Shown here piece after piece: positions 28,978 through 48,539 of a stretch of DNA of 64,000 nucleotides. Made by a program: the position numbers and the translations under genes. The first letter of the stretch is position 1. Every line of letters begins with the position of its first letter. Source of the DNA: a virus (taxonomy: Duplodnaviria > Caudoviricetes); IMG/VR virus record IMGVR_UViG_3300020460_000012. One strand, 5' to 3'. The notes beneath the pieces are model-generated. The model had not been told where the DNA came from. It did no database searches and saw nothing but the letters and a program-made list of their open reading frames with translations.

Positions 28978-29427
28978 CTATGCGTCTTCAGTGAAATCTG
29001 TATCGTCAGTACCTGCCTTAGTATCATCATCACCAGCTTCTTCAACTTGAACAGCACCGTCTGCTCCTGCAACCGTAAAGTTCCAAGAAATACTAGTACC
29101 GTCTAGTGCGTTTGAACCAGTAGCAGATGGTTGCTTTACAGTAACTTTTCTGCCTGCGATTTTTGATACACCATATGTTTCATCGTCATCACCTTTAACA
29201 GAAATAGTCATTTCTGTACCAGTTAATGCGGCTGGTAATTTACCAGTTACAAGTGTGCGATCATAGCTACCGCCGTCTTCTGTTGCACGTACTCTAAACT
29301 TCTTGCTACCAAGTTGTTTTACAATATGCCCTTCAACGACTGCTGATCCATCATGAAAGTTAACTTTTATTTCATTTCCGGAAGCTGTTGGCGTTCCAAA
29401 AAATCTTTTGTTTAGTGGTCTTCCCAT
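28978..29427 (-). CDS. Conserved-looking hypothetical (virion) protein, 149 aa
   Basis: MGRPLNKRFFG start; strong AAGGAG RBS; own late promoter (TAAATA 29515-29520) and structured leader. Confidence 0.6.
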   Translation of the reverse strand: MGRPLNKRFFGTPTASGNEIKVNFHDGSAVVEGHIVKQLGSKKFRVRATEDGGSYDRTLVTGKLPAALTGTEMTISVKGDDDETYGVSKIAGRKVTVKQPSATGSNALDGTSISWNFTVAGADGAVQVEEAGDDDTKAGTDDTDFTEDA

Positions 29428-29439
29428 TTGTTTTCTCCT

Positions 29440-29512
29440 TAATAAGTTGACGTTCTAGGTCTACGGGGTTGGATCCCCATAAGTCCTCATCTAGAGGCTC
29501 TCCTCTTGACAT
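29440..29512 (-). promoter_or_regulatory. Structured 5' leader of gene 28978..29427
   Basis: Hairpins GAGG-AGAG-CCTC (29494-29505) and ATGGGG-ATCCAA-CCCCGT (29463-29480), the latter enclosed by TCTAG/CTAGA; located between the late promoter and the RBS. Confidence 0.5.
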
Positions 29513-29531
29513 AGTATTTATCATTAGATAC

Positions 29532-29564
29532 AAAAGAAAAAGGCCCGCTTGAGGCGAGCCTTTT
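29532..29564 (-). terminator. Rho-independent terminator ending the stand-alone ncRNA
   Basis: Minus strand AAAAGGCTCGC-CTCAA-GCGGGCC-TTTTTCTTTT. Confidence 0.85.
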
Positions 29565-29788
29565 AAGATAAGCAAAGTAGGGAGGACTCGGTTATACCTC
29601 CAACCCCTCGACCGAGATGCCATTCTCAAATCCAGGGAACCTATTTCCGCTCGGTAGAGCGATGTGACTCAGCGTATTTCTACTACCAAGCCTGGGTACC
29701 ACCCCTAAACAGTCAAGTTCGACGCTCTGGTAAACGCCTCTTCCTTGCACTACAAACATTGACTAGCTAAGTCTTTGTTGCTTATGTT
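29565..29788 (-). ncRNA. Candidate stand-alone structured ncRNA (~230-250 nt), family not recognised
   Basis: Own sigma70-type promoter and terminator; terminal stem ATAAGCAA/TTGCTTAT (29778-29785 with 29568-29575); several internal hairpins with G-U wobbles on the minus strand; no credible ORF. Confidence 0.7.
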
Positions 29789-29791
29789 ACT

Positions 29792-29819
29792 AATATAACA
29801 TCTTTATAATAAATGTCAA
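29792..29819 (-). promoter_or_regulatory. sigma70-type promoter of the ncRNA
   Basis: TTGACA (29814-29819), 16 nt spacer ending in TG-T, then TATATT (29792-29797). Confidence 0.65.
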
Positions 29820-29840
29820 CCTCTTTTTTAAAAAAAAGTC

Positions 29841-29872
29841 AAAAAAATAGGTCCTATAAAAGGACCTATTTT
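29841..29872 (-). terminator. Rho-independent terminator after the major capsid gene
   Basis: AAAATAGGTCCT-TTTAT-AGGACCTATTTTTTT on the minus strand, about 25 nt after the gp23 stop. Confidence 0.85.
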
Positions 29873-29897: not shown

Positions 29898-31073
29898 TTA
29901 GCTAAAGCTAACGTTACCAGAAGTAATAGCTACTGCGCCGAGGTAATCAGCCGCGTTACCAAGAGACGAAGCAGTATTTGATAATTCAATATACCCGTAT
30001 CTTGTCATAAAGCTAACTGTTGGCTCAAATGTGGACGGATCCAACACAACGCCTGAGCTCATTAGCGGAATATATGGGCAATAGAATGCTGCCGCATCAG
30101 ACTCGCTTGCGCCTTTATAACCAACAAGTACGTTAGCATTGTCAGCCGCATATGTGTTTACATATACTTTCATAGCGTTGTTTAAAGTACCAACCATCTT
30201 AGTGTTAGTTGGAGCTTCGAATGAACCTTCAGTTGTTCTTGCGAACGCTGAAGTAGTTGCACTTTGTAGAATTGTAAGTGCAAATGGACTTACAACAGCC
30301 CAGTTACCTGCGCCTCTACGTGTACGCTGAGCGATTTGGTTTGACACTCTGTTGATTTGAACAGCTAATGCCGCATGCTCATCACCAACGAAAGTAGCAG
30401 TACCAGATACCGCCGCTTGGTCATATGTTTGACCAGCTGAACCTGCAAGAGTATTCAAGCTAGCAATAACCTCTTGGTCAATTTCAGCGGTAATTTCTTG
30501 TGCAAGAGCAGCCATAATTTCTGCTTCTACATCAATACCGTGCATTGACTGAGCGTCTTGAGCCGCTTCAAAAGTCCAGCGAGCTGATAGCTTTCTGGTT
30601 TTTGCTTCGACTGTTTGCTTCAAGATTTGGATTGATAGCTTGCTTCCACCAGCGCCTTCAAGCGTTGATGTATTATCAGCTTTGCCTGTTGTAGCATTAC
30701 CGGAATAAGCTTCCGCAATCTTGAATGGTGAAAGTGCTTCTTCACCTGCTGTAGCACCGGACGCACCTGAGCCTACAGTTTCTGCGTATCTTACACGCAA
30801 TGTGTGGATTTGACCCACTGGACCAGTCATCGGTTGAACACCAACAAGTTCGTTAGCAATAACGGTTGGCATTACACGTCTGATGACGGGTAAGATAACT
30901 CTGTTAAGAGTTGCGACATTACCGGCGGATGTTGTACCTGCAACAGCTGTCTCAGACAAATACTTGCGAGTATTTTCTAAGGTAGCACCCATTACAGCTT
31001 TCTTATTGCCTTGTAGGCCTTCCAAAAGTGCAGTTTTGGTATCCTGCCAGCGACTTTCTAATAGTTCTGACAT
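29898..31073 (-). CDS. gp23: Major capsid protein (T4 gp23-like)
   Basis: LPVIRRVMPTVIANELVGVQPMTGPVGQIHTLR, KTRKLSARWTFEAAQD, AEITAEIDQE, AAFYCPYIPL, FMTRYG. Confidence 0.95.
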   Translation of the reverse strand: MSELLESRWQDTKTALLEGLQGNKKAVMGATLENTRKYLSETAVAGTTSAGNVATLNRVILPVIRRVMPTVIANELVGVQPMTGPVGQIHTLRVRYAETVGSGASGATAGEEALSPFKIAEAYSGNATTGKADNTSTLEGAGGSKLSIQILKQTVEAKTRKLSARWTFEAAQDAQSMHGIDVEAEIMAALAQEITAEIDQEVIASLNTLAGSAGQTYDQAAVSGTATFVGDEHAALAVQINRVSNQIAQRTRRGAGNWAVVSPFALTILQSATTSAFARTTEGSFEAPTNTKMVGTLNNAMKVYVNTYAADNANVLVGYKGASESDAAAFYCPYIPLMSSGVVLDPSTFEPTVSFMTRYGYIELSNTASSLGNAADYLGAVAITSGNVSFS

Positions 31074-48503: not shown

Positions 48504-48539
48504 ATTATAATATACTCTGTTAACTTTGTCAACTAAATA
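48504..48539. promoter_or_regulatory. Perfect sigma70 promoter for gp55 back-to-back with a plus-strand late promoter
   Basis: Minus: TTGACA (48527-48532), 17 nt, TATAAT (48504-48509). Plus: TAAATA (48534-48539). Confidence 0.8.

Follow-up and report, generated by a model that had tools for sequence, protein, structure and literature searches.

A divergent manA-family RNA as a candidate stand-alone gene, with co-varying loop pairs, in an aquatic jumbo phage

Downstream of its gp23-type major capsid gene, the 64,000-nucleotide stretch of DNA analysed here (the window) carries what sequence comparison confirms as a self-contained cassette (29785–29532, minus strand), in which a sigma70-type promoter and a strong intrinsic terminator frame a multi-helix RNA. 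Judged by homology, the RNA is a divergent manA RNA (Rfam RF01745). We consider it probable, at roughly 0.6, that this cassette gives rise to a free, self-associating RNA and does not act as a switch for the adjacent gene. Family membership, fold, cassette layout and co-variation of the loops are demonstrated here.

All elements of the unit lie on the minus strand (Table 1). The original prediction had described an RNA gene insulated by the gp23 terminator, with its own TTGACA/extended -10 promoter and its own strong terminator, and all three elements were recovered. The terminator scan returned the capsid-gene hairpin, which is also kept in relatives that lack the cassette. The promoter scan identified TTGACA-16-TGtTATATT, matching at 11 of 12 positions and including an extended -10, with a predicted transcription start near 29785. 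The RNA body itself is a GC-richer stretch of ~220 nt, and its own terminator starts 3 nt past helix P0; within the full transcript the terminator stem reaches a mean pair probability of 0.96 and makes no pairs with the RNA body. A sub-threshold Rfam match to ctRNA_p42d over this hairpin (29530–29565; 25.9 bits, cut-off 50, E = 0.0029) seems to reflect no more than a generic terminator hairpin. Beyond the terminator, the late-promoter-like box is kept in most homologues. The manA RNA of the window is thus not positioned in a 5′ UTR, with a terminator and a separate late promoter standing before the next gene. This gene, the 149-aa ORF, has a leader of its own, in which the 3′ end of the freshwater-2 model extends over the ribosome-binding site and the ATG; homologues of the ORF follow freshwater-2 in relatives. 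Most related loci have the freshwater-2 leader and this ORF downstream of the capsid gene, whether or not a manA cassette is present; a literature search on the freshwater-2 motif returned nothing useful.

Table 1 Features of the manA cassette and its flanks in the window. Helix rows give the outer limits of each hairpin or the two pairing strands.
Feature	Position	Strand	Details
gp23-type major capsid gene	29898..31073	(-)	391 aa; upstream neighbour; Pfam PF07068 Gp23, 1.4e-98; phrog_138 major head protein
Capsid-gene intrinsic terminator	29837..29872	(-)	hairpin 29872-29844, 12-bp stem + T run; terminator scan; upstream cassette boundary
Promoter	29792..29831	(-)	A/T-rich tract; -35 TTGACA 29819-29814; 16-nt spacer; TG 29800-29799; -10 TATATT 29797-29792; scan match 29819-29792
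manA-family RNA body	29564..29788	(-)	helices P0 to P9; Rfam RF01745, clade model R1, covariation
P0	29785-29779 with 29574-29568	(-)	ATAAGCA/TGCTTAT; pairs 5′ and 3′ ends
P1	29777-29757	(-)	GACT/AGTC
P2	29753-29750 with 29580-29577	(-)	
P3	29747-29714	(-)	GGCGTT/AGCGTC; loop L3 UACCAG 29732-29727
P4	29712-29707 with 29646-29641	(-)	encloses three-hairpin junction
P5	29705-29694	(-)	GGG/CCC; loop L5 GUGGUA 29702-29697
P6	29692-29666	(-)	loop L6 GAAA 29680-29677
P7	29662-29647	(-)	CGCTC/GAGCG; loop L7 UACC 29656-29653
P8	29637-29604	(-)	loop L8 AUGGCA 29623-29618
P9	29601-29581	(-)	GGAGG/CCTCC; loop L9 29596-29586
Intrinsic terminator of the RNA	29528..29564	(-)	hairpin 29564-29538, 11-bp stem, 6 G-C pairs, loop CUCAA, then UUUUUCUUUU U tract
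GATAAATAC T4-type late-promoter-like box	29514..29522	(-)	serves next gene; downstream cassette boundary; nine bases past terminator
freshwater-2 RNA leader (RF02980)	29425..29499	(-)	75 nt; Rfam 55 bits, cut-off 49.9; outside manA unit
149-aa ORF (MGRPLNK...)	28978..29427	(-)	downstream neighbour; no Pfam or PHROG match

An E-value scan of Rfam matched RF01745 at 29571–29772 over the full model (positions 1–192) with 50.2 bits (E = 8.8e-12). This score does not reach the manA gathering cut-off of 55.2 bits, so the copy is absent from the gathering-threshold scan and a standard annotation run misses it; the altered register of P1, the length of P6 and the additional P0 account for part of the score loss. 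Homologues were collected from 80 related IMG/VR loci obtained with the capsid protein as query and from more than 80 further contigs obtained with a conserved-core pattern, and a clade-specific covariance model (R1) built from 12 hand-checked homologues found 89 copies, 74 of them distinct. R1 scores the window RNA at 227.6 bits. On RF01745 the homologues range from 29.7 to 79.9 bits, with five loci above the cut-off (L037, 79.9; L035, 78.6; L026, L062 and L024, 55.5–56.4), the copy in Pelagibacter phage Mosig reaches 64 bits, and the classic copies in the Prochlorococcus phages P-SSM4 and P-SSM2 reach 184 and 182 bits. In the reciprocal direction, R1 finds P-SSM4 (E = 4.7e-16) and P-SSM2 (E = 2.4e-14), aligned across the entire clade model. 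Homology to accepted manA members is therefore supported via intermediates and by reciprocal search, and the full-length Rfam match, the above-cut-off relatives and the reciprocal matches of the clade model together identify the window RNA as divergent manA. The suggestion that the RNA was possibly undescribed falls with this match to a known Rfam family, the very finding that the original prediction had named against its novelty.

Searches for other assignments were negative within their scope. No other Rfam family gave a significant match over the RNA body (29568–29785), and ARAGORN called 0 tRNA or tmRNA genes in the window, as had been expected from the letters. Among isolated phages, blastn of the window RNA matched Pelagibacter phage Mosig only, and blastn of the RNA from L037, the best Rfam scorer, gave no match. 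Rfam detected no manA in three long related contigs and none in S-PM2 or Syn9. One annotation in a classic copy deserves mention: in P-SSM4, the 57-aa “hypothetical protein” PSSM4_169.1 (L209:1056–1229) overlaps the 184-bit manA RNA (record 164829–165014) and is probably a spurious ORF call.

Compared with the classic manA RNAs of P-SSM2 and P-SSM4, the window RNA has the same order of helices and shares several sequence blocks, namely AGUG past P2, GUGGUR in loop L5, an ACC-type sequence in L7, and UUG ahead of the P9 hairpin. The classic copies also carry, as in the window, a consensus promoter (TTGACA-17-TATAAT) a few nucleotides upstream of the RNA. Unlike them, the window RNA has the end-closing P0, a much longer P6 and another P1 register, it is followed by a dedicated terminator and no metabolic gene, and it resides in a jumbo phage with a PA5oct/Phosso-like capsid instead of a cyanomyovirus.

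The proposed fold comprises all helices of the manA consensus secondary structure (P1, the closing helix, P3, the P4-enclosed junction with three hairpins, P8 and P9). The sense strand folds more stably than its shuffles (z = -2.6), and so does the antisense strand (z = -2.9); as both strands beat shuffles, stability by itself is not decisive. Covariation is. Across 71 pairs in the 74 distinct homologues, standard pairs occupy 82.1% of cells versus 62.7% in column shuffles, changes on both sides occur in 65 of the 71 pairs, and the covariation score is 0.442, whereas shuffles give 0.160 and slid partners no more than 0.12. This comparative evidence, which had been proposed as a check, confirms that the folded RNA is real, and it is covariation and not stability that settles the matter. 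The pairing of the 5′ and 3′ ends noticed in the original prediction corresponds to P0, a helix missing from the Rfam manA model. Each strand matches its own partner more closely than a permuted one (p = 0.0002), and clear compensatory variants occur, AUAUGCA/UGCAUAU and AUUAAGU/ACUUAAU among them. The five internal stems proposed there likewise correspond to covarying helices (P1, P3, P5, P7 and P9), to which P2, P4, the GAAA-capped P6 and P8 are to be added. A further proposal, a pseudoknot between ACCGAG in L9 and an upstream CTCGGT, did not hold: the complementarity is no better than with permuted partners (p = 0.5–0.8), CUCGGU is the 3′ strand of the covarying P8, and the match is lost in L026 and L024. 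A coding reading was also rejected, as the internal 55-aa ORF is not conserved and the longest ORF varies from 10 to 64 aa across homologues.

The arrangement seen in the window recurs across the clade. Promoters, called at a score of at least 9.5 of 12 with a bonus of 0.5 for an extended -10, were identified upstream of the RNA in 67 of 75 distinct homologues, and the distance from the -10 end to the first base of the RNA is nearly constant. Of 66 evaluable homologues, 38 have an intrinsic terminator that starts between -5 and +16 nt relative to the 3′ end of the RNA and the other 28 have none; the predicted transcripts measure 248–271 nt. In the full transcripts of these 38 instances the terminator stem has a median pair probability of 0.97, and in 36 of them the top-ranked predicted structure leaves it free of pairs to the RNA body. 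No anti-terminator is thus predicted, leaving no recognisable expression platform. The cassette is carried by 18 of the 47 related capsid loci with sufficient flank. Three relatives that lack it (L002, L007, L008) pass straight from the capsid terminator to GATAAATAC and on to the freshwater-2 leader and the same ORF, and these identical flanks mark the promoter-RNA-terminator unit as a clean insertion or deletion. The conserved cassette architecture, the presence or absence between identical flanks and the separate late promoter together support, at the level of comparative genomics, the view that manA of the window is a stand-alone RNA gene with its own host-type promoter and its own terminator. 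To this extent the earlier proposal of a stand-alone RNA transcribed by host RNA polymerase stands, apart from its claim of novelty. Promoter type is the sole basis for supposing that transcription would be early.

Sequences downstream of manA are unrelated across homologues, some of which continue with a late promoter and a different gene. Some copies lie directly before a start codon without a terminator (Mosig, rubrerythrin; P-SSM2, purL; L135; L148; L125), and these copies running straight into a start codon make a cis role possible for some manA members. At L093:177–402 and L106:4144–4368, and also in L014, a gene that looks tRNA-like by eye follows a few bases after manA with no terminator between them; if this flank is a tRNA, manA of L093 and L106 would be co-transcribed with a stable RNA from a sigma70-type promoter. 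At L095:3912–4020, L099 and L157 a conserved, GC-richer, ORF-free sequence follows manA in place of the terminator and may be another structured RNA.

The capsid protein of the window is nearest to those of the jumbo phages Sinorhizobium phage Phosso, Vibrio phage 2.275.O and Pseudomonas phage PA5oct among isolates (65–69% identity). A pelagimyophage lineage, considered on the basis of the Mosig RNA match, was discarded after this capsid search pointed to the jumbo-phage lineage. Related contigs extend up to 209 kb at ~60% estimated completeness. In the window, TATAAATA boxes stand upstream of several structural genes and strong sigma70-type promoters are few, the manA promoter being among the best four or five in the 64 kb; other near-consensus promoters (TTGACA-17-TATAAT/TATACT) lie at 48532, 47623 and 4487 on the minus strand. 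In Mosig, an unannotated manA RNA (L081:3010–3235; MT647606 108156–108391), 75% identical to the window copy, lies 15 nt before the start of a “putative rubrerythrin” with no terminator. As the window capsid is nearest to jumbo phages whereas Mosig is filed in Kyanoviridae, this similarity suggests horizontal spread of the manA RNA between lineages.

Other structured RNAs share this habitat. The wcaG RNA (RF01761) and the glutamine riboswitch (RF01739) occur in the same kinds of marine T4-like phage genomes; their folds differ from manA, and neither matches the interval studied here. Glutamine riboswitch matches (43–55 bits, cut-off 35) were located between the capsid gene and manA in L062, L024, L037 and L016. 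In L062 (4291–4888) the riboswitch follows a 123-aa ORF and precedes a 50-aa basic ORF; by eye, the former looks like a pyruvoyl-type S-adenosylmethionine decarboxylase, and the latter is reminiscent of riboswitch-controlled glutamine-synthetase inactivating factors. ROOL, GOLLD, OLE and raiA are large, ornate, free-standing structured RNAs associated with phages or prophages, often beside tRNA genes, and some of them form RNA-only multimers. The manA cassette resembles them in being free-standing and structured and, by eye, in the tRNA-adjacent position of some homologues. They are, however, much larger and have no sequence or fold in common with manA, and Rfam gave no match to any of the four in the window.

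A recent preprint (bioRxiv 10.64898/2026.07.01.735769) bears directly on the loops of this RNA. In it, cryo-EM of five manA RNAs is reported to show pentamer-based decamers and a 60-subunit cage made of RNA only. The contacts that hold these together are kissing loops between molecules: one mode combines L5-L7′ and L8-L9′, the other L5-L7′, L3-L8′ and a contact between the GNRA loop L6 and a receptor. Assembly was demonstrated there in vitro, at high RNA and Mg, with other members of the family, and the biology of the assemblies is not addressed. We numbered the seven hairpin loops by helix order, their equivalence to L3–L9 of the preprint being inferred and the GNRA loop being taken as L6, and compared the longest Watson-Crick match within each RNA with that of permuted partners for all 21 loop pairs, a permutation that ignores phylogeny. 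Matched complementarity was detected in only three of the 21 pairs, L3-L8 (p = 0.0005), L5-L7 (p = 0.0015) and L8-L9 (p = 0.0005), with p of at least 0.08 for the remaining 18. For L8/L9, about ten distinct complementary word pairs occur across the clade, for example AGGA/UCCU, CAGA/UCUG, AUGA/UCAU, GAGA/UCUC, CUGAU/AUCAG and AUGGAA/UUCCAU. The three co-varying pairs of the clade are the contacts reported as L5-L7′, L8-L9′ and L3-L8′, and the GNRA loop on P6 likewise parallels the L6-receptor contact.

In the window RNA itself, L5 and L7 match over 4 bp (GGUA/UACC) and L3 and L8 over 3 bp (CCA/UGG), with a C where relatives have a U and pair over 5 bp (UACCA/UGGUA), and L8-L9 show almost no match. 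By its own loop matches, this RNA thus resembles the assembly type built on L5-L7 and L3-L8. It differs from the RNAs of the preprint, which are other members refolded in vitro, in its weakened L3-L8 match. Read by itself, the loop co-variation would fit contacts within one molecule and contacts between molecules equally well.

We propose an aquatic jumbo phage in which the cassette sits inserted, with the capsid-gene terminator upstream and the late promoter for the following structural gene downstream. RNA polymerase of the host type would start near 29785 and stop at the terminator near 29532, releasing a discrete RNA of ~255 nt (by its predicted ends) that P0 would close at both ends. This RNA would fold into the manA core and could display GGUA of L5 for UACC of L7, CCA of L3 for UGG of L8, and GAAA on P6. 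It may then act in trans as a free RNA particle that associates with copies of itself, although self-assembly in cells is something we infer. A free self-associating particle appears the most likely mode because the loops match the intermolecular kissing contacts of the manA cryo-EM oligomers. Extension to the family is more tentative: we would give somewhat less than even odds to the idea that manA RNAs generally are free RNA particles made by phages and not leaders, each a ~255-nt RNA with paired ends that would assemble in the infected cell through kissing of L5-L7, L3-L8 or L8-L9 into pentamer-based oligomers or cages.

The established view of the family is a different one. From its 5′-UTR positions, Weinberg et al. 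2010 (PMC2864571) judged manA likely to be a riboswitch, and Rfam types it as cis-regulatory. Applied to the window, the RNA would be an aptamer and the hairpin 29564–29538 its expression platform, such that ligand-dependent read-through from the sigma70-type promoter would allow the 149-aa ORF and the downstream structural block to be expressed early or conditionally, beside expression from the late promoter. A promoter, a complex fold and a terminator are indeed the usual layout of a transcription-attenuating riboswitch, and the copies abutting a start codon without a terminator suit such a role. In the window, however, the terminator lies past the closing helix P0 without overlapping the fold, the next gene is equipped with a separate late promoter and leader RNA, and close relatives keep the same downstream gene without the cassette. 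The independence of the terminator from the RNA body in 36 of 38 instances, the unrelated genes downstream of other copies, tRNA (by eye) among them, and the lack of any reported manA ligand in our literature search, 16 years on, also speak against it, and we regard a leader function for this copy as improbable. Slightly less improbable, yet still unlikely, is a trans-acting RNA working as a monomer, whether as a polymerase decoy in the manner of 6S RNA, as a sponge that binds a nuclease or an RNA-binding protein, or in anti-defence; its loop matches would then be intramolecular tertiary contacts. The stand-alone cassette with its strong host-type promoter would suit any abundant trans-acting RNA, the co-variation is equally compatible with contacts inside one molecule, and L5 and L7 sit in one three-way junction enclosed by P4. 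Against this stand the loop contacts of five manA RNAs, which the preprint describes as intermolecular (bioRxiv 10.64898/2026.07.01.735769), the absence of a conserved neighbouring gene that would point to a protein partner or target, and the negative Rfam result for 6S RNA and other known decoys. The functions offered in the original prediction, ribozyme, antitoxin or polymerase decoy, are not supported for the window RNA.

We judge it very improbable that the element has no functional product and is just a structured spacer, serves to stabilise the capsid mRNA at its 3′ end, or spreads as a selfish mobile insert. Its presence does vary among close relatives, and 75% RNA identity with a phage of a different family, Kyanoviridae, suggests horizontal spread. 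The capsid gene, however, has its own terminator upstream of the cassette promoter, that promoter is kept at near-consensus strength, and compensatory change in more than 60 pairs together with three loop-loop contacts indicates selection on the folded RNA.

As a discovery this is modest, the manA family being already known. For sixteen years manA has been an orphan riboswitch candidate, and with the 2026 preprint it became the first short RNA from nature with a reported icosahedral-like cage built of RNA only, in vitro and without biological context. The locus described here and its ~70 relatives add such a context, in which aquatic phages of the jumbo and T4-like kinds carry manA as an optional, self-contained gene equipped with a strong host-type promoter and, in most cases, a terminator of its own. 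New are its presence or absence between identical flanks, the helix P0, and a loop co-variation that matches the cryo-EM contacts, the only loop pairs co-varying in nature being the three by which the published assemblies are held together. These findings argue for re-typing Rfam manA from “cis-regulatory” to “gene”, and they make both the reality of the cage in cells and its benefit to the phage directly testable. If manA RNAs do assemble in this way, the natural co-variation of these loops would be the first evidence of in vivo selection on the assemblies seen by cryo-EM.
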